DNA from: Rhodospirillaceae bacterium
Lineage (GTDB): Bacteria > Pseudomonadota > Alphaproteobacteria > UBA6615
NCBI GenBank assembly: GCA_018667335.1
Contig: JABIVD010000029.1
Location: forward strand, 91,381 to 155,380
Direction: 5' to 3'
Length of the DNA stretch: 64,000 bases
Shown here: positions 3,499-63,890 of the stretch, piece after piece
How the letters are laid out: the number at the start of each line of letters is the position of its first letter
Numbering within the stretch: the stretch's first letter is position 1
Position numbers and translations under genes: made by a program
Notes under the pieces: model-generated
The model's database searches: none
What the model was told of the DNA's origin: nothing
Seen by the model: only the letters and a program-made list of their open reading frames with translations

Positions 3499-3756
3499 TC
3501 AGACCGCGATTCGATTGTAGATGCGCGCCACCAGCCAGACGACCAGGCCCGACAGCACGGACCAGAGCACCAGCCCGCCGATGAAATTGGCAAAGGTCAG
3601 GGACCACTGGAACGCCGCAAGCTCCGCATGAACCATGTAACCCGTCATCCTGAGCGTCGCCCCGGGGATGAGCGCGACCAGCGCGCTGCAGATAACCCAA
3701 AGAAGCCCGAACGTGATGGCTGTGGAGAGGGCCAGTTTATTTGCATTGAGGTTCAT
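3499..3756 (-). CDS. small integral membrane protein (2-3 TM), unknown function
   Basis: 85-aa ORF with hydrophobic segments LALSTAITFGLLWVICSALVALI and FIGGLVLWSVLSGLVVWLVA. Confidence 0.4.
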   Translation of the reverse strand: MNLNANKLALSTAITFGLLWVICSALVALIPGATLRMTGYMVHAELAAFQWSLTFANFIGGLVLWSVLSGLVVWLVARIYNRIAV

Positions 3757-4241
3757 TTTTTATCTCCGGTAAGAGTTCTGATACGTGAATCGAAAGCCTG
3801 AGCACCGCGGGTGCGGCAGGAATCGCAGCATATGGACATCGCGATCTGCATCGTCGCGTCGCGACGGCTCACTCGTTCAACAGGACCAATACCTTCCTGG
3901 CATCAGATCGTTTTGGGCAGCAACTCCGCTCGGTCGGTCGCTTCACGGATGTTCGAATGACCGGCCCCGTGTTTTGCCGGTCATGCCAACCGAAGAACCG
4001 AAACTAGTCCTTCCAGCAGATGGAGGGTCAAGGAGGATCGCGACCCGGCGATCGCTTTCTCTGGTCGGTCGGTACGCCGGAAACATTCTTCGCCGCGAAA
4101 CGCGAAGCGAGATGGCCCTGCGTATAATATTGGGTGCGCTTTTGTCACGCGCGCGCGCGGTGGTAGAAGCGGAGGAAGAAAGTTCCGCCAACCAGTTGCC
4201 GCTGAAACAGCAATAATCGGCGACAGCCAAGAGCCCGAAGC

Positions 4242-5489
4242 ATGTCCAACCCCGCCACACAAACCTCACAGACAAACTGGACCGGCGTGTCCTACGGCAT
4301 CGTGCTGGGGTTCGTTGCCGCCTATTTCCAGTTCAAGGTGCCGCCGGTCCTGCCGGTGATGTTCGACATCTACGGCTACAACACGATCGTCGCCGCCGGC
4401 TTCATGTCGATCTTCGCCATCGCCGGCATGCTGATCAGTGTGCGGGTCGGCCGCGCGATCCGGCGCGACGGCGCCCAACGTTATCTCATGGCGGCCTTCG
4501 GCCTGATGCTCGTGGGCACGGCCCTGGGGCTCGCCTTCCCCGAGAGCGGGTCGGTGATGCTCACCTCGCGCCTGATCGAGGGGTTCGGCGCCGCGGTGCT
4601 GGCCGTCTGCATGCCGGCGTTTGCAAACATGAGTGCGGGGCCCGGCCATCTGCCCATCGTCATCGCCGCCCAGGCGACCTGGATTCCCGTCGGCCAGCTC
4701 GTGGCCAACATCGTCGCCCAGCCCTCGGTCGCCATCGATATCTGGCAGCCGGTCTGGTGGTTCGGCGGCCTCGCGACCGTCGCGGTGGCGCTATGGACCT
4801 GGTGGATCGTCAAGCGTGGAACGGTCCCGGGTGTCGCCCATATCCGCACCGCGCCACCCGGCGCGCCAGAAACATCGGCCAAACCCGAGGTGGCGCCGCT
4901 GACATCAAAAGAGATCCGCGCGCTGTGGGTCGCGGCCTCACTGTTCTTCCTCTGGCAGGCCCAGTTCATGGGCTACTTCACCTGGCTGCCGGTCTATCTC
5001 GTGGACGTCCGCGCCTTCTCGGCCGATGGCGCGGTGCTGATCAACCAGATCCCGGTGATCGTGCTGCTCGTCTTCTCACTGATCGGCGGGATGATCTTGA
5101 AGACCGGCGTCGGGGTCATCAAGCTACTGACCTTCGCGCTGGCGCTGCAGGCCGTCGGCTGGGCGATGATCCCGTTCGCGGGCACGCCCGTCATCGGGCT
5201 CGCCAGCCTCGTCGTCTGGGGGGTCGCCGCGGGCCTGACCCCGACCTCGCTCTGGGCGCTGCCCTCGACCCTGGTCGGCGGCCATCGCGCCGGAACCGAC
5301 GCGTTCGCAGTCGTCCTGACCGGGCGCTATCTGGGCATTCTCGCGGGGCCGCTCATCGCGGCGGGCATGTTCGAGCTGACCGGCAATTGGATCACCGTCG
5401 CCTACACGTTCGTTGCCATTGCCGGCGCGACGATCGTGGGAACACTTTATCTCGGGGTACGCATCCGCGACCTGAAGACAGGCAGCTAG
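4242..5489 (+). CDS. MFS transporter
   Basis: 415 aa with about 12 predicted TM helices. MFS-like loop GRAIRRDG after TM2. Central hydrophilic loop. Confidence 0.8.
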   Translation: MSNPATQTSQTNWTGVSYGIVLGFVAAYFQFKVPPVLPVMFDIYGYNTIVAAGFMSIFAIAGMLISVRVGRAIRRDGAQRYLMAAFGLMLVGTALGLAFPESGSVMLTSRLIEGFGAAVLAVCMPAFANMSAGPGHLPIVIAAQATWIPVGQLVANIVAQPSVAIDIWQPVWWFGGLATVAVALWTWWIVKRGTVPGVAHIRTAPPGAPETSAKPEVAPLTSKEIRALWVAASLFFLWQAQFMGYFTWLPVYLVDVRAFSADGAVLINQIPVIVLLVFSLIGGMILKTGVGVIKLLTFALALQAVGWAMIPFAGTPVIGLASLVVWGVAAGLTPTSLWALPSTLVGGHRAGTDAFAVVLTGRYLGILAGPLIAAGMFELTGNWITVAYTFVAIAGATIVGTLYLGVRIRDLKTGS

Positions 5490-5525: not shown

Positions 5526-6251
5526 CTACGGAACCAGGCGGTAGCCGCCCGGCTCGGTCACGAGGATTCGCGCGTTGGACGGGTCGGCCTCGATCTTCTG
5601 GCGCAGGCGATAGACATGGGTCTCGAGCGTGTGGGTCGTGACCCCCGCATTGTAGCCCCAGACCTCACCCAGCAACGTGTCGCGGCTGACGACCTTGTCG
5701 CCGGCCCGGTAGAGATATTTGAGGATCGCCGTTTCCTTCTCGGTGAGCCGCACCTTGCGCTGCTCGCCATCGACCAGAATTTTCTGGGCCGGCTGGAAGG
5801 TGTACGGGCCGATGACGAAGACCGCGTCTTCGCTCTGCTCGTGCTGGCGCAACTGGGCGCGCAGTCGCGCGAGCAGGACATTCAGGCGGAACGGCTTGGC
5901 GATGTAGTCGTTGGCGCCGGCGTCGAGACCGAGAATCTGGTCCGCGTCGGTGTCGTGGCCCGTCAGCATGATGATCGGCGACTTCACGCCATTGCGGCGC
6001 AGCAGGCGGCAAAGATAGCGCCCGTCCATGTCGGGCAGGCCGACATCGAGCAAAATGGCGTCGAAATATTCGGTCTTCGTGACCTCGAGCGCATCGGCGG
6101 CACTGGTGGCCTCCGTGGTGACGAACTCCTCGTGCAGGGCCAGCTGCTCCGAGAGAGAATCACGCAACGCGTCGTCATCATCGATCAGCAGGATCTTCTT
6201 GCCGTTCGTTAACTTGGTTTCCACCGCATTCGTCATAGCCAGACTCATCAT
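5526..6251 (-). CDS. OmpR/PhoB-family response regulator (receiver + winged-helix)
   Basis: Receiver motifs KILLIDDDD, DAILLDVGLPDMDG, IIMLTGHD. C-terminal trans_reg_C LTEKETAILKYLYRAGDKVVSRDTLLGEVWGY...YRLRQKIE. Confidence 0.85.
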   Translation of the reverse strand: MMSLAMTNAVETKLTNGKKILLIDDDDALRDSLSEQLALHEEFVTTEATSAADALEVTKTEYFDAILLDVGLPDMDGRYLCRLLRRNGVKSPIIMLTGHDTDADQILGLDAGANDYIAKPFRLNVLLARLRAQLRQHEQSEDAVFVIGPYTFQPAQKILVDGEQRKVRLTEKETAILKYLYRAGDKVVSRDTLLGEVWGYNAGVTTHTLETHVYRLRQKIEADPSNARILVTEPGGYRLVP

Positions 6252-24545: not shown

Positions 24546-25889
24546 TTACTTCCCAATACAGAAGTCACGAAAGACGGTGTCGAGTATGTCGTCGATATCG
24601 ACCCGGCCGGTGATCCTGCCAAGCGCCCGGAGCGCGACACGCACGTCCTCGGCGGCGAGTTCCGGGTATGCCGCGTCGGGTACATGCGCCAGCGCCGTGC
24701 TCGCCTCGCCCAACGCATCGCGATGACGCCGGCGGGTCGGCAACGGCGCTTCAGACGCCCCCAGGCGGTCGTGCACCTCGCCGGTCAGTCTGTCGAGCAA
24801 ACCATCGAGCCCGTCGCCGGTCTCCGCAGATACGAGTATCGGCACGATCCCTTCCGGAAGACCCGGCGCGGCGTATTTCCCCCTCAGCAGATCGGCTTTG
24901 TTCACCACCACCAGGCAATCACCGGCGATCAGCGCACGGACCTTCTCCGGCAAGGTACCGTCGGTCGCGTCGAGCACCACGAGCCTCAGGGCCGCATCCT
25001 CAGCCCGTTGCTCGGCACGCCGCACACCCTCGGCCTCAATCGCATCAGAAGCCTCGCGTATCCCCGCCGTATCGGAGAGCGTCACGGCGAAGCCACCGAG
25101 ATTGAGCTGGACCTCGATGACGTCGCGGGTGGTCCCCGCGGTTTCCGACACGATCGCCGCCTCACGTTGCGCCAAGTGATTGATAATACTGGACTTTCCG
25201 ACGTTCGGCGCGCCCAGGATCACGATCGGAAAACCGCTACGTATGTGCTCGCCGCGATCCGCACCTACTATATGTTGTGTGATCTCAGCATTCAGCACTG
25301 CGATGCGTTCCTCGGTCGCGGCCCTCATCCCATCCGGCAACTCCTCGTCGGAGAAGTCGATTTCCGCCTCGGCATGGCCCATCAAGTCGATCAGGCGGGC
25401 CCGCCACCCCTCATAGAGATCGGCCAGCACCCCATCATACTGGCGCAGCGCCAGTCGCCTCTGGGCGTCCGTCTGGGCCGCCACGAGGTCTGCCAGCCCC
25501 TCGGCGGCCGTCAGGTCGAGCTTGCCGTTCTCGAAGGCGCGGCGGGTGAAATCGCCCGGTTCGGCATGCCGCGCCAGGCCGGTCCCGGAAATCGCATCGA
25601 ACACCGCGGCGAGGACCGCGCGACCGCCATGCACATGGAGTTCGGCCACGTCCTCGCCGGTGAAACTGTTCGGGGCCGGAAATCTCAGGACCAACGCCTG
25701 ATCGAGGACTGCGCCGCCCGGCCCGGAAGTCAATTTGTGCAGCGCAACATAACGCGCCTCGGGAAGCACCGGGACGCCAAGTGCGGTCAGGACCGCATCG
25801 GCATTCGGGCCCGAAACACGCACGACCGAGACGCCGGCGAGGCCGGCGCCGCTCGACAGCGCGTAGATGGTGTCTGCAGGCGATACCAC
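24546..25889 (-). CDS. mnmE: tRNA modification GTPase MnmE (TrmE)
   Basis: G1 motif GAPNVGKSS. TTRD. C-terminal CIGK. N-terminus IYALSSGAG. Confidence 0.92.
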   Translation of the reverse strand: MVSPADTIYALSSGAGLAGVSVVRVSGPNADAVLTALGVPVLPEARYVALHKLTSGPGGAVLDQALVLRFPAPNSFTGEDVAELHVHGGRAVLAAVFDAISGTGLARHAEPGDFTRRAFENGKLDLTAAEGLADLVAAQTDAQRRLALRQYDGVLADLYEGWRARLIDLMGHAEAEIDFSDEELPDGMRAATEERIAVLNAEITQHIVGADRGEHIRSGFPIVILGAPNVGKSSIINHLAQREAAIVSETAGTTRDVIEVQLNLGGFAVTLSDTAGIREASDAIEAEGVRRAEQRAEDAALRLVVLDATDGTLPEKVRALIAGDCLVVVNKADLLRGKYAAPGLPEGIVPILVSAETGDGLDGLLDRLTGEVHDRLGASEAPLPTRRRHRDALGEASTALAHVPDAAYPELAAEDVRVALRALGRITGRVDIDDILDTVFRDFCIGK

Positions 25890-36160: not shown

Positions 36161-37032
36161 CGGGGAAACTGAAGGCCGGGGTCATGGGCTGGCCCGTCGC
36201 GCATTCATTGTCGCCGGCGCTGCACGGGCATTGGCTGGCGCGCTATGGCATCGCGGGCCGTTACGACGCGATTCCGGTCCGGCCCGAGGATTTGCAGGCG
36301 GCGCTCGCGGGTTTGCATGAACAGGGATTCCGGGGTGTGAACCTGACTGTGCCCCACAAGGAGGCCGCGCTGGGTTTCGTGGACGCGATCGACGACACGG
36401 CACGCCGGATCGGCGCCGTGAATACCATTATCCTGGGCGATGACGGGTCACTTTCGGCGACCAACACCGACGCCTACGGATTGATCGAGAATATTCGGGC
36501 CCTTGCGGCGGCGGCGCTGGCCTCGCGGTTCAACGACCGGCCGGCGGTTATTCTCGGTGCCGGTGGTGCCGCACGGGCCGCGGTGGTGGGGCTGGCGGAC
36601 GCGGGTGTCGCGGACATACGCATCGTCAACCGGACGGTCGCCCGTGCCGAGGCGCTCGCCGCCCTGGCGGACGGGTCCGGCGCTTCGGTGAGCGCGCAGG
36701 GTTGGGGTGCAGCGGCCGAGGTGCTGGCGGACGCGGGACTTTTGATCAACACCAGCACGCTCGGGATGGCGGGTCAGCCACCGCTGGAACTCGATCTTGC
36801 ACGCCTGCCGTCCGATGCGGTGGTCAACGATATCGTCTACGCGCCGCTGGAGACCGATCTGCTGGCGGCAGCGCGGGCCCGGGGCAACATCGTCGTCGAT
36901 GGGCTGGGGATGCTGTTGCACCAGGCGCGGGCGGGGTTTCGGGCCTGGTTCGGGGTCGACCCCGCGGTCGATGAGGAATTACGGACCGCCGTGCTGGCCG
37001 CGCGTGACGGCCGGGCAGGGTTGAAAACATGA
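36157..37032 (+). CDS. aroE: shikimate dehydrogenase
   Basis: GWPVAHSLSPALHG. NLTVPHKEAA. GAGGAARA Rossmann motif. Confidence 0.88.
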   Translation: MTGKLKAGVMGWPVAHSLSPALHGHWLARYGIAGRYDAIPVRPEDLQAALAGLHEQGFRGVNLTVPHKEAALGFVDAIDDTARRIGAVNTIILGDDGSLSATNTDAYGLIENIRALAAAALASRFNDRPAVILGAGGAARAAVVGLADAGVADIRIVNRTVARAEALAALADGSGASVSAQGWGAAAEVLADAGLLINTSTLGMAGQPPLELDLARLPSDAVVNDIVYAPLETDLLAAARARGNIVVDGLGMLLHQARAGFRAWFGVDPAVDEELRTAVLAARDGRAGLKT

Positions 37033-37646
37033 TGGTGCTCGGCCTCACCGGCTCGATCGGCATGGGCAAGTCCACTGCCGCGAACATGCTGCGTGCGATG
37101 GGTGTGCCGGTCCATGATTCCGACGCCACGGTGCACGGCCTGTTCGCCTTCGACCGGGATCTGCGCGAGGCCATATCGGCGCGCTTCCCGGGGGTCGTTA
37201 CGGACGACGGTGTGGATCGCCAGGCGCTGGGTGCGGCCGTCTTCGGCGACGATGCGGCGCGGCGCGATCTCGAGACGCTGGTCCATCCGCGCGTGCGTGC
37301 CGCCGCCGGCGCCTTTGTCCGGCACCACCGCCGGCAGCGCGCGGCGCTGGTCGTGCTCGATATCCCGCTCCTGTATGAGACCGGCGGCGAAGACCGGGTC
37401 GACGGGGTGATCGTGGTCTCGGCCCCGGCCGCCCTGCAGCGCCGGCGCGTGATGGCCCGGCCCGGCATGGACGCCGAACGGTTCGCCGGGATTCTCGCCT
37501 CTCAGATGCCGGACGGCGAGAAGCGGCGGCGCGCCGACTTTGTCGTGGAGACCGGCCTGGGCAAGGCCTATACTTTCCGCCGATTGAAACGGATCGTCAT
37601 GGCGGTCCGAACCGCCGCGCAGTCTGGCCCGCCCGGCACCAACTAG
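37029..37646 (+). CDS. coaE: dephospho-CoA kinase
   Basis: P-loop LGLTGSIGMGKST. HPRV motif. Confidence 0.88.
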   Translation: MMVLGLTGSIGMGKSTAANMLRAMGVPVHDSDATVHGLFAFDRDLREAISARFPGVVTDDGVDRQALGAAVFGDDAARRDLETLVHPRVRAAAGAFVRHHRRQRAALVVLDIPLLYETGGEDRVDGVIVVSAPAALQRRRVMARPGMDAERFAGILASQMPDGEKRRRADFVVETGLGKAYTFRRLKRIVMAVRTAAQSGPPGTN

Positions 37647-44889: not shown

Positions 44890-45480
44890 ATGTCGGCGCC
44901 CGGCAAGAAAAACGGCAACAAGGCGGATGACGACGACGATACGGATTTGTTTCGCCGCGCGCTCTCCGATGCCGCACCCCTGAAGCGACGGCGCCCGCAA
45001 CCCTCCGAGAAAAAGGCTGTCGCGGCCAAGCCAAAGCCTGCGAAGAAACCCGTCAAAAGTAAACCAATGATCACGCCGCCCGTCGCTGCGCCGCGCCCTG
45101 TCGCACGGCCGACCCCGCCGCCAGATATCGCCGCCAGCGACTATGCGGGTGTCGACCGACGCACCGCCGAACGGTTCCGACGGGGGAAGTTGCCCATCGA
45201 GGGGCGGCTCGACCTGCACGGTCTCTACCAGGACGCCGCCCAGGACGCCCTCACCCGCTTCATTACGGATAGTGCTGCCAGCGGCCGCCGGATGGTGCTG
45301 GTGATTACGGGGCGCGGGTCGCGCGAGGGCTCGGGCGTGCTGCGCGAGCGCCTGCCCCAGTGGCTCAACCAGCCGCCGTGCCGGGCGCATGTGCTGGCGT
45401 TCACCCCGGCGCGCCCGGAACATGGCCGCGACGGGGCCTTCTATGTGCTGCTGCGCCGCAAGCGTGGGGATAGAGGATGA
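44890..45480 (+). CDS. Smr-domain protein
   Basis: IEGRLDLHGLYQDAAQDALTRFITDSAASGRRMVLVITGRG Smr signature. Basic N-terminal region. Confidence 0.75.
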   Translation: MSAPGKKNGNKADDDDDTDLFRRALSDAAPLKRRRPQPSEKKAVAAKPKPAKKPVKSKPMITPPVAAPRPVARPTPPPDIAASDYAGVDRRTAERFRRGKLPIEGRLDLHGLYQDAAQDALTRFITDSAASGRRMVLVITGRGSREGSGVLRERLPQWLNQPPCRAHVLAFTPARPEHGRDGAFYVLLRRKRGDRG

Positions 45481-45836
45481 CGCCGTTCGGCGCGAAGGTG
45501 CGGGTGTATCGCGCAGAACGGAAGCTGACCCTGAAGGCGATGGCGGCGGATCTGCAGCTGTCACCGGCGTATTTATCGTCTCTTGAACATGGCTATCGCG
45601 GCCGCCCGTCCGAAGCCCTGGTGGTGCAGATCTGCGAGTATTTCAACCTGATCTGGGACGATTACGAGGAGATGCACCGGCTCGCCGCGTTGTCTCACCC
45701 CAAGGTCACGGTCGACACATCGGGCCTGACCGCGACCCACACGGAGCTCGCCAACACCCTGGCCGAGAAGGTGCGCGATCTGTCGGAACAGGACGCTGTC
45801 GCGATTCTCGCGCGGCTCCGCGGGGATTTGTTTTAG
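45477..45836 (+). CDS. XRE-family helix-turn-helix protein
   Basis: VRVYRAERKLTLKAMAADLQLSPAYLSSLEHG. ATGA overlap with the smr stop. Confidence 0.7.
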   Translation: MTPFGAKVRVYRAERKLTLKAMAADLQLSPAYLSSLEHGYRGRPSEALVVQICEYFNLIWDDYEEMHRLAALSHPKVTVDTSGLTATHTELANTLAEKVRDLSEQDAVAILARLRGDLF

Positions 45837-49542: not shown

Positions 49543-50505
49543 TCAGGCGTGGATTTCGAGGAGAAAGGAGAAGGGCGTGTTGTAGCCGCCGGCCTCGATC
49601 TCGTTCGCGCCAATGTGAAGCGGGATCACATTGCGCGGTTCGTCGAGGCCGATCCGCTCGCCGTTGACCACGGTGCCGAGCTGGCTGCCGGCGTCGCGGA
49701 TCATCAGGCCTGGCCGCCCGAGCTCGATCAGGAAATGGTTCCGCGAGAGGTTGTAGGGCCGTTCGTCGGGAAACTGGAGGACGATGTCGGTCCGCGGGGT
49801 CTGCTCACCGCGCTTGGGCTTGCGGCCGACGCCGAACGGCGTCTCGTTGATCTTGACGCCGCGCCGGGGCATGCCGCTGCGGGTCGCGTCGCTGGCCGGC
49901 TTGAGCCAGATCGTGGACCAGCTGCCCATCTCGGCGACATCGCCGGCATGTGTGGCCTTGCGTGTGCGCTTTCCGGTGATGGAGACGACATTGGAGTCGG
50001 CTTCGCGCAGGAGCTGATCGAGGGGTGATTCGGTGTCTGAATCTACGCGTGACACCATTCCTGCGTCAGTTCCTGATTCAATTCCTGATTCAATTCCTGA
50101 TTCTGCGTCTGGCACCAGCGTCAGGCCTGCGAGCAACTGGGTCGCCGCCCTTCGCACCATGTCCGGGTGTCGCGCCAACTCCGCCGCGACGGTGCCCCGA
50201 TCCACCATGACGGCCTCGACAGGCCCGGCGGCGATGGCGCTCAGATCCTGTCGTCCGCCGAACAGCAGGCTCGCTGCGCCGATCACGTCGCCCTGGCGTG
50301 CGTCCCCCAGCAGAGTGCCGGTTGCGTTGCGCAGCTCGACGCGGCCCGTGACAATCACGAAACCCGCGTCCGGGTCCTCGCCGGCGCGGAGCAGAAAATC
50401 CTGATCGGAAAAGACGCGGGTGCGTCCGGGTAAGGTGTTCATGAGCAAGCAAGTAATGAAGTGGACGAATTGACGTATGATGCCGAAGTTCGCCTGATCC
50501 GCCAA
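49543..50505 (-). CDS. cyclic-nucleotide-binding domain + FHA domain fusion protein
   Basis: N-terminal cNMP-binding fold (FLLRAGEDPDAGFVIVTGRVEL...GDVIGAASLL). ESGIESGIESG linker. C-terminal FHA signature (YNLSRNHFLIELGRPGLMIRDAGSQLGTVVNGERI). TTG start at 50505 per ORF track; alternative ATG at 50442. Confidence 0.7.
   Translation of the reverse strand: MADQANFGIIRQFVHFITCLLMNTLPGRTRVFSDQDFLLRAGEDPDAGFVIVTGRVELRNATGTLLGDARQGDVIGAASLLFGGRQDLSAIAAGPVEAVMVDRGTVAAELARHPDMVRRAATQLLAGLTLVPDAESGIESGIESGTDAGMVSRVDSDTESPLDQLLREADSNVVSITGKRTRKATHAGDVAEMGSWSTIWLKPASDATRSGMPRRGVKINETPFGVGRKPKRGEQTPRTDIVLQFPDERPYNLSRNHFLIELGRPGLMIRDAGSQLGTVVNGERIGLDEPRNVIPLHIGANEIEAGGYNTPFSFLLEIHA
50069..50104. repeat. 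12-bp tandem repeat x3 (attcctgattca) encoding the ESGI linker
   Basis: Seen in sequence; in-frame, within the coding region. Confidence 0.5.
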
Positions 50506-57029: not shown

Positions 57030-57899
57030 TTACGCCACCGGCAGATTGTCGATAAGCCGGGTCTCGCCCAGCCAGGCGGCGGCAAGTGCGCGCAGGGGCG
57101 TGCCCGCCGGCGCCTGACTGGCCGGCAACAGGGTGTCGGCCGCCCTCACCTCCAGATACTCGATCGGCGAGAATCCTGCCGCCGCGAGCGCCTCATGGCC
57201 CGCCGCGCAGGCAACGGCCGCGGTTTCACCGGCCAGCAGCCGCGCCGCGACGCCTTTGAGGGCCACGTGCATTTTGGGTGCTGTCGCGCGATCGGCCGGG
57301 CTCAGGTTGGCGTTGCGCGATGAGACCGCGAGCCCGTCGGCCTCGCGGACGGTCGGCAGGCCGATGATTGCGACCGGGATGTCGAGGTCCAGCGCGAGCC
57401 TGCGGATGACCTGGAGCTGCTGGTAGTCCTTTTCGCCGAACACCGCACAATCGGGCAGCGCCTGCAGCAGCAGCTTCGTGACGATGGTCGCGACACCCGC
57501 GAAGTGGCCGGGCCGGTGGTCGCCGCACAGCCCCTGGCTGATGTCCGGCACGTTGACGTTTGTTTCGAATCCGGCGGGGTACATGTCCTCGACACCCGGC
57601 GCGAACAACAGGTCCACACCGTGGGTGCGCAGGGTCTCGATGTCGCGCGCCTCGCGCCGCGGGTAGCTCGAGAAATCTTCGTCGGGGCCGAACTGGGTCG
57701 GGTTGACGAAGATGGTCGCCACCACCCGGTCGGCGTGTTTGCGGGCCTCATCGACCAACGCCATGTGGGCCGTGTGCAGGGCGCCCATCGTGGGCACCAG
57801 CCCTACGGTCTCGCCGACGCGCCGCCAGCCCGCGACGGCTTCGCGCAGCTCGCGGACGGACCGGACGATGACGAGGTTCGGCGCGGTGGGGTCAGACAT
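57030..57899 (-). CDS. panC: pantoate--beta-alanine ligase
   Basis: GLVPTMGALHTAHMALV HIGH-like motif. Confidence 0.9.
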   Translation of the reverse strand: MSDPTAPNLVIVRSVRELREAVAGWRRVGETVGLVPTMGALHTAHMALVDEARKHADRVVATIFVNPTQFGPDEDFSSYPRREARDIETLRTHGVDLLFAPGVEDMYPAGFETNVNVPDISQGLCGDHRPGHFAGVATIVTKLLLQALPDCAVFGEKDYQQLQVIRRLALDLDIPVAIIGLPTVREADGLAVSSRNANLSPADRATAPKMHVALKGVAARLLAGETAAVACAAGHEALAAAGFSPIEYLEVRAADTLLPASQAPAGTPLRALAAAWLGETRLIDNLPVA

Positions 57900-57911: not shown

Positions 57912-58757
57912 TCAGTCGCCCGATGGCTTCGCGTCGCCGAAACAATGTTCGGACCCCGGGAACGTGCGGGCGCGGACGTCGCCGGCGTAGGCCACGGCGG
58001 CCGCCTCGATCTGGGGGTTCAGTTCTGCGTAGCGTTTGACGAATTTCGGTGTGTAGGCGCCGAACAGTCCGACCATGTCCTCGGTCACCAGGATCTGACC
58101 GTCACACGCCGGTGACGCGCCGATCCCGATGGTCGGGATGTCGATGCTGGCGGTGATGTCGCGTCCGAGTGTCTCGGGCACGCCCTCGATCACCACGCCG
58201 AAAGCACCCGCCGCGGCGACGGCCACAGCGTCGTCGCGGATCTGTTGGGCGCGGGCCTCGTCGCGCCCCTGCACGCGGAAGCCGCCGAATGTATTCGACG
58301 ATTGCGGGGTCAGCCCGATATGGGCCAGCACCGGGATGCCCCGGGCGACGAGAAACGCGATGGTCTCGGCCATGGCGACCCCGCCTTCGAGCTTGACGGC
58401 CGCGCAGCCGGTCTCGGTCATGACCCGCGACGCGGCCTCGAACGCGGCGGCCGGTGACGCCTCATAGGTCGCGAACGGCATGTCGACCACGATGCAGGCG
58501 CGTTTGCTGCCCCGCACCACGGCGGCACCATGGGCGATCATCATGTCCAGGGTCACCGGGAGCGTGGACTCGAAGCCGTACAGCACCATGCCGAGGGAAT
58601 CGCCGACCAGCAGGAAATCGACATGCGGGTCGAGCGCTTCCGCCATGGGCGCGGTATAGGCCGTCAGGCTGACGATCGGCTCGCCGCCCTTGCGGGCGCG
58701 AATTTCCGGAACACCAATGCGCCGGGCTGGCGCCCCGTCCTGTGATGATGTGCTCAT
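57912..58757 (-). CDS. panB: 3-methyl-2-oxobutanoate hydroxymethyltransferase
   Basis: LTAYTAPMA...[10 protein letters not shown] signature. Confidence 0.9.
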
Positions 58758-58882
58758 CGTGACTGTCCCCCGACAGGATTCTGCCCGGATATTCGCCCGG
58801 GTTTGTTCCCAGCTTGGCCCAGCAAGGCCCGGGTTTTCCCGGGTTCACCCGTGTGCTGGCGCTGTTTCGGCCAGAACGCTAA

Positions 58883-58897
58883 TTGTGCAGCGCACAA
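58883..58897. promoter_or_regulatory. palindromic operator-like motif TTGTGCAGCGCACAA upstream of panBC
   Basis: Near-perfect inverted repeat TTGTGC-N3-GCACAA. Related copies at 59303-59315, 59355-59369, 59392-59399. Confidence 0.35.
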
Positions 58898-59021
58898 AAG
58901 GCAAGACAGATGATGCGCCCGCGCTGGCGACGGTGGGCCAGGGCAATTGCGGGGTCATTCGGGGGAAATTGGTGCGGAGCCGGCCTATGACCGGCTCCGC
59001 ATCGACTTTCAGTGGTCCGGC

Positions 59022-59240
59022 CTAGGCGTGGCGGCGGGCTTCACTCGTGAACACGACATGGCCGATCGCCGCAATCGCGCGGCGCAGGGCGCGGCAAGCC
59101 GCCACAATACCCTTATGTGTCGCCTCGGCGCGCAACTGTTCGGCGTCGCGGCAGATATCGTTGATCATTTCGGGCGTGAGGTCGGCCGACGTATCCCAAA
59201 CATTGGCAAGGTCGGTGTTTTTATTGTTTTCCGTGGTCAT
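59022..59240 (-). CDS. small hypothetical protein (72 aa)
   Basis: ATG 59240 has a GGAG SD at -6. Followed by a 10-bp-stem hairpin (gcggagccgg...ccggctccgc) at 58979-59006. ORF track extends to 59312. Confidence 0.4.
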   Translation of the reverse strand: MTTENNKNTDLANVWDTSADLTPEMINDICRDAEQLRAEATHKGIVAACRALRRAIAAIGHVVFTSEARRHA

Positions 59241-59302
59241 AGCTGACTCCGTCATCGGGTTTGAGAACGGCGTCGCCCCCGTGCACCTGATGCTTATATT
59301 AT

Positions 59303-59399
59303 TGCAGCGCACAATGGAGTAAGTATCAGGAAAAACAGAGGCCTACAACACATATTGTGCAACGCAGCATTCTTATCTGCTGCAGCTTATGTTGCGCAA
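59303..59399. promoter_or_regulatory. cluster of three TTGTGC/GCGCACAA-related motifs between thiolase and the small ORF
   Basis: ttgcagcgcacaa (59303-15), ttgtgcaacgcagca (59355-69), ttgcgcaa (59392-99). Confidence 0.35.
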
Positions 59400-59428
59400 T
59401 ATATGGGCAGTATTCTAACGCTTCGGGG

Positions 59429-60670
59429 CTAGGTCCGGCCGAGGATGGTGACGCAGGCGACGGCCTCTTCGATGCCGTGGAACCCGCCACCGTTTTCCGC
59501 GATTGCGAACTTCGCGTTCGCAACCTGCCGTGCGCCCGCCTCGCCGCGCAGCTGGGTTGTCAGTTCGAACACCTGTGCGAGGCCGGTGGCGCCCACCGGG
59601 TGGCCCTTGGATTCGAGCCCGCCTGAGAGATTGACCGGTATCCGGCCGCCGATGCTGGTGGCGCCGCTCTCGGTGAGTGCGCCCCCCTCCCCGAAGTCAC
59701 AGAAGCCGAGATTCTCGACCTGCTGGATCTCCGCGAACGCGGTCGCGTCATGAACTTCGGCGACATGCATGTCTTCCGGGCCCAGGCCGGCGCGCGCATA
59801 GGCATCGCGGGCTGCGAGGTGGGTGATGTGCCGGTCGAATTCCTGGGGGTCGCGGTCGGAGCCGGTCCGCAGGGCGGTCGCATGGATTTTTACAGCGCGG
59901 GACCGGTCGAAGCGGTCGAGTTCCTCTTCTCGGCACAGAATAGCCGCCGCCGCGCCGTCGGAGATGGGCGAGCACATTGGCAGGGTGAGTGGCCAGCTGA
60001 CCTTGCGGGCGGCCATCACCTCGTCGACGGTCATCGCCTCGCGGTACTGAGACAGCGGGTTGTGGGCGGAATGGGCGTGGTTCTTGGCGGCCACGGCGGC
60101 GAGCTGCGCCTGGGTGGTGCCGAAGGATTTCATATGGAACTTGGCGAGGGCGGCATAGACATCCATGAAGACGCTGCGCTGGCCGGTGTCTTCTTCTCCA
60201 TCCGGGTCGGCGACCCCCTGCCCCATTGCCAGCAGCCGGTCGGTCGCGGCCGCCACGTCGTGGACATCCCAGCCGCCGTCGAACACGGAGAACATCTTCG
60301 CCCGGTCCTCGTGGAACATCTTTTCGGCACCCACGGCAATCGCGACCCCGCCGCGCCCGGCCTCCAGCCAGGTGGCGGCCATGTCGAGCGCGGTCGACGC
60401 GCTGGCGCAGGCATTCTCCACATTTGTGACCGGGATTTCCTGGATGCCCATGTTGCGCAGCGCGATCTCGCCGGGGATCGAGCCCTGCCCTTCGAGGATG
60501 GCCTGGGCGGCGTTGGAGAACCAGGCCGCCTCGATGTCGGCAACCTGCGCGCCGGCATCTGCCAGCGCGTCGGTAACGACCGCGCGGGTCATCTCCTTGA
60601 TGGGGCGATCGAGAAACCGGCCGAACGGCGTCATACCGACGCCGACGATGTAGATGTCCGACATGTTCAA
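59429..60670 (-). CDS. thiolase-family protein (SCP-x / nonspecific lipid-transfer-type thiolase)
   Basis: MSDIYIVGVGMTPFGRF N-terminus. Catalytic Cys region VTNVENACASASTAL. 413 aa. Confidence 0.85.
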   Translation of the reverse strand: MNMSDIYIVGVGMTPFGRFLDRPIKEMTRAVVTDALADAGAQVADIEAAWFSNAAQAILEGQGSIPGEIALRNMGIQEIPVTNVENACASASTALDMAATWLEAGRGGVAIAVGAEKMFHEDRAKMFSVFDGGWDVHDVAAATDRLLAMGQGVADPDGEEDTGQRSVFMDVYAALAKFHMKSFGTTQAQLAAVAAKNHAHSAHNPLSQYREAMTVDEVMAARKVSWPLTLPMCSPISDGAAAAILCREEELDRFDRSRAVKIHATALRTGSDRDPQEFDRHITHLAARDAYARAGLGPEDMHVAEVHDATAFAEIQQVENLGFCDFGEGGALTESGATSIGGRIPVNLSGGLESKGHPVGATGLAQVFELTTQLRGEAGARQVANAKFAIAENGGGFHGIEEAVACVTILGRT

Positions 60671-60706
60671 GTGTCCTTTCGAAATAATGTACCCGGCGAC
60701 CCGGCC

Positions 60707-61714
60707 CTAGGCCGCATCGACCCGTGAATTGGCGGCCGCCTTGTAAGCGTTGGCGAGATACCAGTCGAGGAAGTTGTTGTAGCTGATCGGTTCGTGGGTG
60801 ATCGCTTCCCCGTCGGCGCCCGGGATGCAGGTGATAGTCGCCTGCGCGCCGGGGTTGAAGAACAGCGGGATCGAGTATCGATCCCGGTCGCCGTCCGGCG
60901 AAATCACCCGGTGCGGGCTCGCTAGCCACCGGTCGTTGCTCCAGCGCCGAAGCATCTGTCCCGCATTGATCACATAGGAACCGGGCACCTTCGGCGCGGT
61001 GATCCATTCGCCGCTCGGGAGCTGCACCTCCAGTCCCGCCACCTCGGTCTGCGGCAGGAAGGTCAGGAAGCCCGCATCGGTGTGCGCGCCGACCCCGAGT
61101 TGGTTCTCGACGCGGTGCTCGACCCTCGGATAGTGGATCATTCGCAGCCAGGCCAGCGCATCCTCGAAATGCGGGTCGAAATAATCCGTCGGGACCCCGA
61201 GCGCGGTTGCATAGACCGGCAGCAACTTGCGGCCCAGGCCGTACACGGCGGCGTAGTAGGTCTGGATGTTCTCCCGGAAACCCGGCAGGTCGTCTTCGTC
61301 CGGCCAGGGCTGGGGGATGTAGAAGCGTTCGCCCGCCGTGCACCGGGCGTGGTTGGCCGGGAAATCGCTATTGATGTGATAGGCGGCGTGCAGGTCGGGT
61401 CTGTTCTTGCGGTTCGCGAATTCCTCGCCCCGCTCCGCCTCATCGTCGACCGCGACCCGCGTGCCGCCGTGGCCAACATAGCCGACATAGTGTTGGCTCT
61501 GCTTCAGGCGCTGCTTCGTTTCGAGGGGCAGCGCATGAAACCGGCCCGCTTCGTTGAACGCCAGGTCGATGAGCTCCTGCGGGATGCCGTGGTTGATCAT
61601 GAAGTAGAAGCCGGTGTTCTCGCACGCGTCGCGCAATTCGTCGGCCAGGCGCGCGCGCGCGCCTCCCTCGCCGGCGAGATAGGGGCCGATGTCCAGGACT
61701 GGCAGGGTGGTCAT
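60707..61714 (-). CDS. isopenicillin-N-synthase-like 2OG-Fe(II) oxygenase
   Basis: MTTLPVLDIG...GFYFMINHGIP N-terminal DIOX_N. HxD...H core (GVGAHTDAGFLTFL). ATG 61714; ORF track start 61750. Confidence 0.8.
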   Translation of the reverse strand: MTTLPVLDIGPYLAGEGGARARLADELRDACENTGFYFMINHGIPQELIDLAFNEAGRFHALPLETKQRLKQSQHYVGYVGHGGTRVAVDDEAERGEEFANRKNRPDLHAAYHINSDFPANHARCTAGERFYIPQPWPDEDDLPGFRENIQTYYAAVYGLGRKLLPVYATALGVPTDYFDPHFEDALAWLRMIHYPRVEHRVENQLGVGAHTDAGFLTFLPQTEVAGLEVQLPSGEWITAPKVPGSYVINAGQMLRRWSNDRWLASPHRVISPDGDRDRYSIPLFFNPGAQATITCIPGADGEAITHEPISYNNFLDWYLANAYKAAANSRVDAA

Positions 61715-61827
61715 GGGTTTTTCCGCCTCGTCTGTGCCTTGTGTCTGCAAAACTCAGGGGGATGATTCTATCTGGACCTCCCGCATCTGCCTATTCCCCT
61801 GCCGGACCGTCTCGCCGGGTGACCGGC

Positions 61828-63069
61828 CTAGATCGATACGGGCATGCTGGTCAGGCCACGAAACCGGGCCCGGCCGCCGCGGCTGATGGGGCCGGTGCGT
61901 TGCAGGTTCGGGAACGCGGCGACCAGCTTGCCGATGGCGATCGTGCCCTCCATGCGCGCGAGCGGCGCGCCAATGCAGGCGTGGATGCCGGCGGCAAACG
62001 CCAGATGCTTGTTGGGCGTGCGCGTGATGTCAAAACCATCCGGATTGTCGAAGGCGTCCGGGTCGCGATTGGCGCCGCCGATGCTCGTGAGCAGCTGGGT
62101 GCCGGGCGCGAGCGTGATGCCGCCGACCTCGAACGGTTCGGCGATGCCGCGGTTGCCGATCTGCAGCGGGCTGTCGAAGCGCAGCATTTCCTCGATCGCG
62201 CCCGCGATCAGTGACGGGTCGTCGCGCAGTTTCTGCAGCTGATCGGGATTGTCGAACATTGCCTTCATTCCGTTGCCCACGAGGTTCGTCGTCGTCTCGT
62301 GGCCGCCGTTGAGCAGCAGGATGCAGTTCTGGACGAGCTCGTCCTCGGTCAGCGGATCGTCCTCGGACTCCTGGGATTCGATCAGATCCTCCAGGATGTC
62401 TCCGACGCGTACGCCGCGCGACATGTTCCGCCGCTTCTCTGCGAGAAGGTCGCGCAGGAAGGCCGTGAACTCGCTGACCGCGCGGTTGCCGGCCGCGATC
62501 ATGTCCGGCGTTGCCGTCGGCTCCAGGGGGGTCAGGATTTCCCGTGACCATTCCTGCAGCCTCTCGCGTTCGCTCCCGTCGATGCCGAGCATGGAGCAGA
62601 TCACCTCCACCGGCAGCGGGAACGCGAAATCCAGGACGAGGTCCATCCCGCCGTCGGCGCGGCAGCGTTCGATCAGGCTGTCGACGAGCTCGACCACCCG
62701 GAATTCGAGCTGCTGCAGGGCGCGGGGCGTGAACGCGTGGCGCAGGAGGTTGCGAATGCGGGTGTGGTAGGGCGGGTCGCTGAACAGCATTGACGTGGTG
62801 TGCTGTTCCAGAAGCGGGCCCGGCCCGTATTTCTTCGTGAACATCTCGGTCTTGTCGGACGTCATGCCCTTGGTCCGGTAGACGCGGCGCACGTCTTCGT
62901 AGCGCGTCAGGTAGAAGGAACCGTCGGGGTTCTCGTGCACCGGGTCGAGTTCGCGCAGCGCCTTGTAATAGGGATAGGGGCTCTCGTAGAACGCCGGCGG
63001 CGGCGCATAAAGGCTGAACCCGTCGATCAACGCTTCCTGCGAACCGTGATGGTTGGTCAAAGCGGACAT
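61828..63069 (-). CDS. cytochrome P450
   Basis: Heme-binding FAAGIHACIGAPLARME. EXXR. ATG 63069 with a GGAGA SD; ORF track start 63114. Confidence 0.88.
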   Translation of the reverse strand: MSALTNHHGSQEALIDGFSLYAPPPAFYESPYPYYKALRELDPVHENPDGSFYLTRYEDVRRVYRTKGMTSDKTEMFTKKYGPGPLLEQHTTSMLFSDPPYHTRIRNLLRHAFTPRALQQLEFRVVELVDSLIERCRADGGMDLVLDFAFPLPVEVICSMLGIDGSERERLQEWSREILTPLEPTATPDMIAAGNRAVSEFTAFLRDLLAEKRRNMSRGVRVGDILEDLIESQESEDDPLTEDELVQNCILLLNGGHETTTNLVGNGMKAMFDNPDQLQKLRDDPSLIAGAIEEMLRFDSPLQIGNRGIAEPFEVGGITLAPGTQLLTSIGGANRDPDAFDNPDGFDITRTPNKHLAFAAGIHACIGAPLARMEGTIAIGKLVAAFPNLQRTGPISRGGRARFRGLTSMPVSI

Positions 63070-63188
63070 GATGTCTCCGTACAAAGGCAGAGGCCGAAGG
63101 GTTACCGTAAACAACGCGTCGGTTTATGACTAGAACGAGAACGTGCCGCCGGCAGGGTCGGCACCGGAGCAACAGGGATCAGTTTGTG

Positions 63189-63890
63189 ATGAGCCATCAT
63201 GGTGATGACACAGAACATCATTACGTCCATCGGATTGGCTGGCTACGGGCCGCCGTTCTGGGCGCGAATGACGGCATCGTCTCGACGGCGAGCCTGATCG
63301 TCGGTGTCGCGGCCGCCGCCGCGGACCGGGAGACCATTCTGATTGCCGGTATTGCCGGGTTGGTGGCCGGCGCGACGGCGATGGCGGCCGGCGAATATGT
63401 TTCGGTCAGCTCCCAATCCGACACGGAGCGCGCGGATCTCGAGACCGAACGCCTGGCGCTGGAGGCGTCGCCGGACGAAGAACTGGCGGAACTGGCCGAA
63501 GTCTATGAGGGCCGCGGTCTCGAGCCGGCGTTGGCGATGGAGGTCGCGACCCAGCTGACGGCCCATGACGCGCTAGGCGCCCATGCCCGTGACGAACTGG
63601 GAATGCATGACACCGGTGCGGCACGCCCCCTGCAGGCTGCCGTGACCTCGGCTGCGACGTTCTCCATCGGCGCCGGTTTGCCGTTGATTGCCGTGGCATT
63701 GGTGTCTGTGAGTCAGGCCATACCGGTGGTGTCCATCGCCTCGCTGGCGAGCCTGGCGTTGCTGGGGGCGATTTCCTCCAAGGTCGGCGGTGCCCCCGTC
63801 GCGCGCGCGACGGCGCGCGTGACCCTGTGGGGTGCGTTCGCGATGGCCCTCACGGCCGCGATCGGTAGCCTCGTGGGGACGGCGATCTAG
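63189..63890 (+). CDS. VIT1/CCC1-family iron/manganese transporter
   Basis: HRIGWLRAAVLGANDGIVSTASLIVGV VIT signature. About 5 TM. ORF track begins at 63126. Confidence 0.8.
   Translation: MSHHGDDTEHHYVHRIGWLRAAVLGANDGIVSTASLIVGVAAAAADRETILIAGIAGLVAGATAMAAGEYVSVSSQSDTERADLETERLALEASPDEELAELAEVYEGRGLEPALAMEVATQLTAHDALGAHARDELGMHDTGAARPLQAAVTSAATFSIGAGLPLIAVALVSVSQAIPVVSIASLASLALLGAISSKVGGAPVARATARVTLWGAFAMALTAAIGSLVGTAI

Follow-up and report, generated by a model that had tools for sequence, protein, structure and literature searches.

Probable PhaR (AniA) boxes at the pantothenate operon and at an adjacent small conserved gene of an uncultured marine alphaproteobacterium

Introduction

PhaR (AniA) is a repressor of alphaproteobacteria that senses polyhydroxybutyrate (PHB). 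In Bradyrhizobium diazoefficiens its consensus, TGCRNYGCASMA, was derived from the DNase I footprints TGCGACGCACAA and TGCGTCGCACAA at phaP1 and TGCGCTGCACAA at phaP4, and PHB abolishes its DNA binding (PMC6201568). A 2025 study of Sinorhizobium meliloti gave the palindromic motif WNWD2NYGCRNYGCRNH2WNW and confirmed that PhaR is sequestered by PHB. The panC-panB promoter of that organism holds a site, TATTTTTGCGCTGCACAAGAT, carrying TTTTGCGCTGCACAAG; a promoter-reporter fusion suggests direct regulation of pan by PhaR, and PanB falls in a module of PhaR-repressed, PHB-modulated proteins (PMC12542648). Here we describe a 64-kb stretch of DNA (the window) from an uncultured marine alphaproteobacterium, in which related palindromes of the form TTGTGC-N3-GCACAA recur upstream of panBC, the operon for biosynthesis of pantothenate (vitamin B5), and upstream of a neighbouring gene for a 72-aa protein. 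An initial annotation had read them as operator-like sites of unrecognised consensus, belonging to an oxidative operon made up of a P450, an oxygenase, a thiolase and the small protein.

The 72-aa protein resembles RSP_7527 of Rhodobacter sphaeroides, whose mRNA is reported to be RpoHII-dependent and whose 3' untranslated region (UTR) yields the small RNA (sRNA) UdsC (PMC9779115, PMC8625941). The comparisons below suggest that the palindromes are probably PhaR boxes, that they belong to panBC and to the 72-aa gene, and that the P450, oxygenase and thiolase genes form a separate unit.

Results

The palindromes match the PhaR consensus

The recurring form TTGTGC-RNY-GCACAA fits the published PhaR consensus, so the consensus that had gone unrecognised is that of the PhaR/AniA box (PMC6201568, PMC12542648). 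The site at the panB promoter, which reads TGCGCTGCACAA on the gene strand, contains the footprinted phaP4 12-mer verbatim (12/12 bases), and the panC promoter site of S. meliloti has the same 12-mer at its core. Taken in its longer form, CCTTTTGTGCGCTGCACAATTAG, the panB site matches the S. meliloti motif at 20 of 21 positions by inspection, with its YGC-RNY-GCR core and A/T-rich arms. The window sites also resemble those of S. meliloti phaP2, mmgR and SMa1961, box A (TGCAACGCAGCA on the + strand, TGCGTTGCACAA on the - strand) being closely like the last two; validated S. meliloti sites likewise read TTGTGC-RNY-GCA (PMC12542648).

The enrichment of the sites depended on the pattern used. With TTGTGC-N3-GCACAA and up to two mismatches allowed, the window gave 5 matches against 1.62 expected, a number reached by 3 of 100 shuffled sequences, and this enrichment is weak. 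The published consensus gave 9 matches against 0.71 expected, and none of 100 shuffles reached 9. Five of the nine correspond to three intergenic sites, two of which match on both strands, in two intergenic regions; the other four lie inside coding sequence, at 5993, 25735, 43669 and 45449. The second of these, at 25735-25749 within mnmE (24546-25889, -), is a perfect copy of TGCGCTGCACAA encoding ..VALHK.., and is probably a chance or non-functional match.

Orthologous loci were taken from the contigs of homologues of the 72-aa protein of equal length, and a thiolase-based scan with one genome per species gave ~20 related loci from marine 'Rhodospirillaceae/Alphaproteobacteria' metagenome-assembled genomes (MAGs); individual loci are designated L001, L007 and so on. 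A profile search of genome contigs with the small-protein alignment gave no match, and a metagenome scan with it gave one locus. Across 24 non-redundant related loci (263 kb) there were 41 distinct consensus sites against 3.6 expected, nearly all of them intergenic and at the panB and small-gene promoters. As a positive control, a consensus box was found 55-75 nt before phaR in three of four environmental phaC|phaR intergenic regions.

At 12 orthologous panB promoters the arms TTGTGC and GCACAA were invariant, even where the leader was otherwise unalignable, while the centre varied within R-N-Y (GCT, GCC, GTC, GAC, AAC, GAT). Invariant arms around a variable centre are the pattern expected of an operator for a dimeric protein. 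Both phaP1 footprints, TGCGACGCACAA and TGCGTCGCACAA, occur verbatim at panB promoters of relatives, so that all three footprinted 12-mers are present in the lineage. All 12 upstream regions read CTTGnn-N2-TTGTGC-RNY-GCACAA-N-TAGCgT. The box fills the 17-nt spacer of the proposed panB promoter (Table 1), whose CTTGCn...TAGCGT framework is kept in all panB-bearing relatives.

From these comparisons we consider it probable that the recurring palindromes are operators of PhaR, which would occupy them. The operator-like character that the initial annotation had seen in them, and their recurrence before the small open reading frame (ORF) and before panBC, were borne out. Given the S. meliloti panC-panB findings, the regulatory link suggested by the window has already been published for another alphaproteobacterium.

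Table 1. Positions of genes, palindromes and signals in the window.
Feature	Position	Strand	Description
PhaR-type box, panB promoter	58883-58897	both	TTGTGCAGCGCACAA; perfect palindrome TTGTGC-AGC-GCACAA
PhaR-type box B, proximal to 72-aa gene	59300-59314		+ strand reads TGCAGCGCACAA; consensus match
Second annotated motif	59302-59314		TTGCAGCGCACAA; within box B
PhaR-type box A, distal to 72-aa gene	59355-59369	both	TTGTGCAACGCAGCA; consensus match
Fourth annotated motif	59392-59399		TTGCGCAA; part of palindrome 59389-59402
Proposed panBC promoter	58876-58904	-	-35 TTGCCT 58899-58904; -10 TAGCGT 58876-58881; 17-nt spacer
panB 5' leader	58758-58875	-	~118 nt, GC-rich, several hairpins; alignments with relatives
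Leader hairpin of 72-aa gene	59245-59274	-	GACGCCGU-N14-ACGGAGUC; 3' arm contains Shine-Dalgarno GGAG
Terminator-like hairpin	58974-59000	-	GCGGAGCCGG-N7-CCGGCUCCGC, then ACCAAUUU; 3' of 72-aa gene
panC	57030-57899	-	Pfam Pantoate_ligase 1.4e-97
panB	57912-58757	-	Pfam Pantoate_transf 7.5e-105
72-aa ORF	59022-59240	-	no Pfam family
Thiolase	59429-60664	-	Pfam Thiolase_N 1.5e-21, Thiolase_C_1 2.3e-37
Oxygenase	60707-61714	-	Pfam DIOX_N 7.1e-23, 2OG-FeII 7.9e-22
P450	61828-63069	-	Pfam p450 6.5e-34
Iron transporter gene (VIT1/CCC1 family)	63189-63890	+	Pfam VIT1 8.2e-64; divergent from P450

PhaR or another regulator

Several points weigh against the assignment to PhaR. Pfam annotation found no phaR, phasin or PHB synthase gene in the window, and the annotation of 40 further window ORFs gave no PHB genes. 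Searches of the window and all loci by tblastn, in which first a single PhaR sequence and later several retrieved PhaR proteins served as queries, found no phaR in the window or within ~10 kb of any related locus. The contigs of four PhaR proteins were checked for a match to the same assembly, and all came from other organisms; that this organism carries PhaR and makes PHB is assumed here. In S. meliloti itself, PhaR bound the pan promoter weakly in a gel shift (PMC12542648). Scanning 58600-59600 for simple sigma-70 promoters gave none; the -35 and -10 assignment at panB and the transcription starts are ones that we infer. Lastly, the four consensus matches inside genes are probably non-functional.

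The palindromes might instead be operators of a different, lineage-specific regulator encoded elsewhere and sharing the TGC-N3-GCA core, for example one responsive to pantothenate or CoA (coenzyme A). Such a regulator would suit a genome to which no phaR has been tied, a 15-bp palindrome, TTGTGC-N3-GCACAA, that surpasses the relaxed published consensus in symmetry and in strictness of conservation, and targets made up of panBC and a gene that always neighbours it. Against it stand the 12-of-12 identity with footprinted PhaR sites, and the panCB promoter of S. meliloti, an experimentally supported PhaR target where the sites read TTGTGC-RNY-GCA. No candidate regulator gene was conserved beside the locus when the loci of relatives were compared, and the earlier observation that none adjoins it in the window also held: the sole DNA-binding candidates there, an OmpR-type response regulator (5526-6251) and a helix-turn-helix protein of XRE type (45477-45836), are both distant, and a cNMP-binding/FHA protein (49543-50505) has no DNA-binding domain. 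We regard another regulator as unlikely. Sites of sigma-54, FNR/CRP, GntR-type regulators and the NifA upstream activating sequence were considered and misfit in spacing or half-sites.

The 72-aa gene is a self-contained unit beside panBC

The 72-aa protein belongs to 25 homologue clusters of conserved length (58-85 aa, 21-99% identical) that share the core [ST]PE..I....E.LR[AS]E and a conserved C-terminal ..RHA. By this conservation the ORF is a real gene; the public assembly collection lists the protein of this organism in 156 blocks. It had been left without a family. Its neighbour is NCBIfam NF046098 (RSP_7527_fam), on which the window protein scores 25.9 bits, just under the cut-off of 26 (E 6.4e-6); homologue P0016, which the family profile links with the window protein (E 7.7e-18), reaches 44.6 bits, and homologue P0025 15.7 bits. 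There was no match to Phasin_2 or any other Pfam family. In the structure predicted by AlphaFold2, residues 23-71 form a single long helix (mean pLDDT, the predicted local confidence score, 76), with a strongly amphipathic stretch (hydrophobic moment 0.61).

The position of the gene varies around panBC. It precedes panB in the window and in L001, L007, L014 and L094, and follows panC in L022, L025 and L096-L101. In the L096-L098 clade it stands beside panBC where there is no thiolase; L066 lacks panBC and has the gene after the thiolase. An insertion was seen in L014, where a gene of ~320 aa lies at ~3600-4560 on the opposite strand, separating the small gene from the thiolase; judged by eye, the product resembles a globin-coupled sensor of the methyl-accepting type.

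The two boxes upstream of the gene are spaced with little variation. Boxes A and B lie 55 bp apart, centre to centre, in the window, and this spacing recurs in eight further lineages (L007, L014, L022, L025, L066, L096, L099; 54 bp in L094). Box B keeps its position in all lineages with the gene. A possible -35/-10 pair can be read in the sequence between the boxes, which, at about five helical turns apart, would flank the proposed core promoter. A CTATNT-like element is found upstream of box B in several relatives, and is only suggestive with regard to RpoHII dependence.

Signals in the predicted transcript are conserved as well. RNAalifold, applied to nine lineages, folded the leader hairpin with 8 pairs, one of which switches between U-A and C-G in 4 sequences, along with G-U changes. 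This hairpin, masking the Shine-Dalgarno sequence, hints at translational control in addition to that by the PhaR-type boxes. The terminator-like hairpin is retained in L001, L008, L014 and L096, with both arms changed between lineages. Together with a short 3' UTR it occupies 58966-59021 (-), in a layout like that of the RSP_7527 3' UTR that yields UdsC.

Because the boxes, the leader hairpin and the terminator are kept at every position of the gene, the small gene is a self-contained unit linked to panBC and lies outside the P450 cluster. Its fixed adjacency to panBC, its dual operator-like sites 55 bp apart and the hairpin predicted to mask its ribosome-binding site point to tight, multi-level control. 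That this single-helix protein is an unrecognised member of the PhaR regulon, tied to pantothenate and CoA supply, is a tentative and somewhat doubtful proposal. The protein might be a mini-phasin that binds PHB granules, or a modulator of PanB or PanC, and its mRNA might release a UdsC-like sRNA from the 3' UTR.

The P450, oxygenase and thiolase genes probably form a separate unit

Six consecutive minus-strand genes, in the order P450, oxygenase, thiolase, 72-aa ORF, panB and panC, were found when the ORFs of the window were annotated with Pfam. The identities given initially to the enzymes (P450, oxygenase like isopenicillin N synthase (IPNS), SCP-x thiolase) and to panBC were upheld, with coordinates as placed, as was the divergent VIT gene upstream. 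The gaps are 113 nt between P450 and oxygenase, 42 nt between oxygenase and thiolase, and 188 nt between thiolase and 72-aa ORF. The first two contain ribosome-binding sites, and neither holds a terminator-like site on the gene strand; co-transcription of the three enzyme genes is plausible. The set is not a fixed unit, and its content varies around the thiolase among relatives.

The translations carry the signatures of their families. In the P450 there is the haem-thiolate loop FAAGIHACIG (FxxGxHxCxG), and the closest Protein Data Bank (PDB) entries are the CYP107-like Vdh and BioI. The oxygenase has HTD and a downstream HRV, forming an HxD...H iron triad; its closest PDB neighbours are EFE-like (ethylene-forming enzyme) and iron/ascorbate oxidoreductases, IPNS itself being distant (1.8e-27). 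The thiolase contains VENACASAS, with the nucleophilic Cys in NACAS, and its top PDB match is SCP2-thiolase type-1 (3.4e-57); it is not PhaA, scoring 39 bits against an NCBIfam cut-off of 740. All three enzymes are thus, by sequence, members of the CYP107-type P450, IPNS/EFE-family oxygenase and SCP2-type thiolase families. None reaches an NCBIfam equivalog cut-off that would point to a substrate.

Close relatives (thiolase identity 84-96%) are a mosaic, carrying the thiolase alone, P450 and thiolase, oxygenase and thiolase, or all three, and the P450 and oxygenase are missing from many of them. A P450 directly upstream of this type of thiolase recurs in close relatives and in the distant proteobacterial MAGs L036 and L045 (~32-33% P450 identity). 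No PhaR box was found upstream of the P450 or the thiolase in the window or in any relative, and the unit has its own promoter region beside the VIT gene. From these features, P450-oxygenase-thiolase (59429-63069, -) is probably a separate accessory operon.

The initial model, in which the P450, oxygenase, thiolase and small protein make up one catabolic or tailoring operon under a novel operator, is very unlikely in the light of this arrangement. All four genes are co-directional, the gaps between the three enzymes have no terminator-like site on the gene strand, and past the thiolase there is only one hairpin, overlapping box A on the gene strand and without a U-tract, so that read-through into the small gene is possible. 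Set against this, the boxes that had been ascribed to the P450 cluster lie downstream of the thiolase, at the proposed promoters of the 72-aa gene and panBC, with none upstream of the P450 or thiolase, and the motif is a known consensus. The supposed fourth member has a conserved upstream region, a leader and a terminator of its own, and in relatives it lies after panC, or beside panBC where thiolase and P450 are lacking; the P450 and oxygenase, for their part, are absent from many close relatives.

Two further features of the enzyme unit were seen. Its leader and promoter region (63070-63188, -) is conserved in P450-bearing relatives (L007 5470-5587, L018 3620-3732), and the palindrome TTACGGTAA within GTTGTTTACGGTAACCC in this region may be the operator through which the P450 unit is actually regulated. 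The P450-oxygenase gap (61715-61827, -) has an insert of ~78 nt, present in the window and in L016 (3832-3950) and lacking in L007 (6830-6864). Within the insert, TAGGCA-17-TAGAAT resembles a sigma-70 promoter, and transcription of the oxygenase and thiolase could start internally from here.

The panB leader and a fourth palindrome

The panB leader ends in the hairpin CUGUC-GGGG-GACAG, which carries the ribosome-binding site. Its conservation (~89%) is confined to the closest clade, sister clades having shorter, different leaders. A riboswitch-like element in this leader was considered and dropped, since the leaders of the sister clades are unlike it and shorter; an Rfam scan of 58500-59700 with E up to 1 gave two matches at chance level (P17, SNORD67) and no pan motif or riboswitch. 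A role of the palindromes as small RNA hairpins, or an origin as copies of a dispersed repeat, in place of a function as protein-binding DNA, is hardly credible: each can form a 6-bp stem with a 3-nt loop, and the intergenic regions are unusually conserved (88-89% in alignments), but such an A/U-ended stem is weak, the panB site falls within the proposed -35/-10 spacer, ahead of where any transcript would be likely to begin, the sites are limited to two promoter contexts and match nothing in Rfam, and, as the arms never change, no compensatory change supports RNA pairing.

Four related motifs had been listed at first, of which three fit the PhaR consensus; the fourth, TTGCGCAA, has no 3-bp centre and misfits it. 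It is contained in a palindrome at 59389-59402 that reads ATGTTGCGCAATAT in the window and ATGTTGCGCAACAT or ATGCTGCGCAGCAT in relatives. The ATGTTGCGCAACAT form likewise has no 3-bp centre and misfits the consensus, and it resembles PhaR half-sites; in the ATGCTGCGCAGCAT form (L066, ~1440-1455) both arms are altered symmetrically. The palindrome is positioned upstream of the PhaR-type boxes, usually followed by CTGCAGCA, and one of ATGTTGCGCAACAT type is also present at L096 7835-7850 and, in L019 and L031, ~45 nt past the thiolase stop. A half-quality PhaR-type box, TTGTGCAACGCAATA, was seen at L031 2745-2765, in an A/T-rich gap with an Amidohydro_2 gene on one side and a comM/Mg-chelatase-like gene on the other; the window ends before the equivalent region.

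Other genes of the neighbourhood

The CoA pathway is represented a second time in the window by coaE (dephospho-CoA kinase; 37029-37646, +). It has no PhaR-type box, so the boxes here are specific to the pantothenate branch.

On the other side of the locus, the VIT1 product is 233 aa long, with the same length in relatives. Between the VIT gene and the P450 or thiolase, some relatives hold a cluster of four genes (an AstE/AspA-like gene, a RimK-like ATP-grasp gene, a RimB-like gene and a 114-aa ORF; L001 5513-8377, L007 2479-5394, L094 2738-5602), which is absent from the window. By this comparison the interval is a hotspot of gene gain and loss.

Discussion

If the palindromes are PhaR operators, a simple mechanism can be proposed. 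At low PHB, PhaR would sit on the boxes and RNA polymerase would be blocked; as PHB granules form, PhaR would be drawn onto them, and this titration would derepress the small gene and panBC, and with panBC the supply of pantothenate and hence of CoA. Sequence comparison establishes what the sites are, how they are conserved, where they lie and how enriched they are; from this we would predict that PhaR occupies them, that they respond to PHB and that transcription starts near 58870 and near 59315-59320.

The closest described system is panC-panB of S. meliloti (PMC12542648). The two loci share the 12-mer core TGCGCTGCACAA in the promoter of the pantothenate operon, the palindromic YGC-RNY-GCR core with A/T-rich arms and the same model of repression titrated by PHB. 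They differ in gene order (panC-panB there, panB-panC here) and in the site itself, which here has a full TTGTGC left arm and so forms a perfect 15-bp palindrome in the proposed -35/-10 spacer. In S. meliloti weak binding of PhaR was shown, whereas here binding is predicted, in an uncultured marine alphaproteobacterium with no phaR in the DNA examined.

The 72-aa gene is better compared with the phasin promoters (B. diazoefficiens phaP1 and phaP4, PMC6201568; S. meliloti phaP1 and phaP2). Their operators include sequences identical to sites found here, and two boxes around core promoter elements serve tight repression, as would those at the 72-aa gene. At the phasin promoters, however, the boxes closely flank the -35, while here they are 55 bp apart and apparently flank the whole core promoter, and the 72-aa product is no recognisable phasin. 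With the R. sphaeroides RSP_7527/UdsC locus (NF046098; PMC9779115, PMC8625941) the gene shares membership of the small-protein family, borderline for the window protein and clear for P0016, and the layout of a monocistronic gene with a short 3' UTR and a terminator hairpin. Unlike here, neither a PhaR box nor a panBC neighbourhood has been reported for R. sphaeroides.

Most of this picture is known biology met in an uncultured marine bacterium, the putative box of the pantothenate operon matching a published target. The fresh element is the conserved RSP_7527-like gene with its dual PhaR-type boxes, which stays beside panBC; this uncharacterised family thereby gains a testable regulatory context. 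An operator that was apparently unknown can now be recognised, and sequence by itself can reveal PhaR boxes in uncultured marine alphaproteobacteria. A caution is that the neighbouring P450, oxygenase and thiolase genes should not be taken as part of the same regulatory unit.

The link from PhaR to pantothenate, described in 2025 for one rhizobium, appears to be conserved in a marine lineage that is both distant and abundant. This supports the coupling of CoA-precursor synthesis to PHB storage as an ancient feature rather than a rhizobial oddity. If the small protein does belong to the PhaR regulon, it would be a link between carbon storage and the synthesis of cofactors in alphaproteobacteria that are abundant in the sea.

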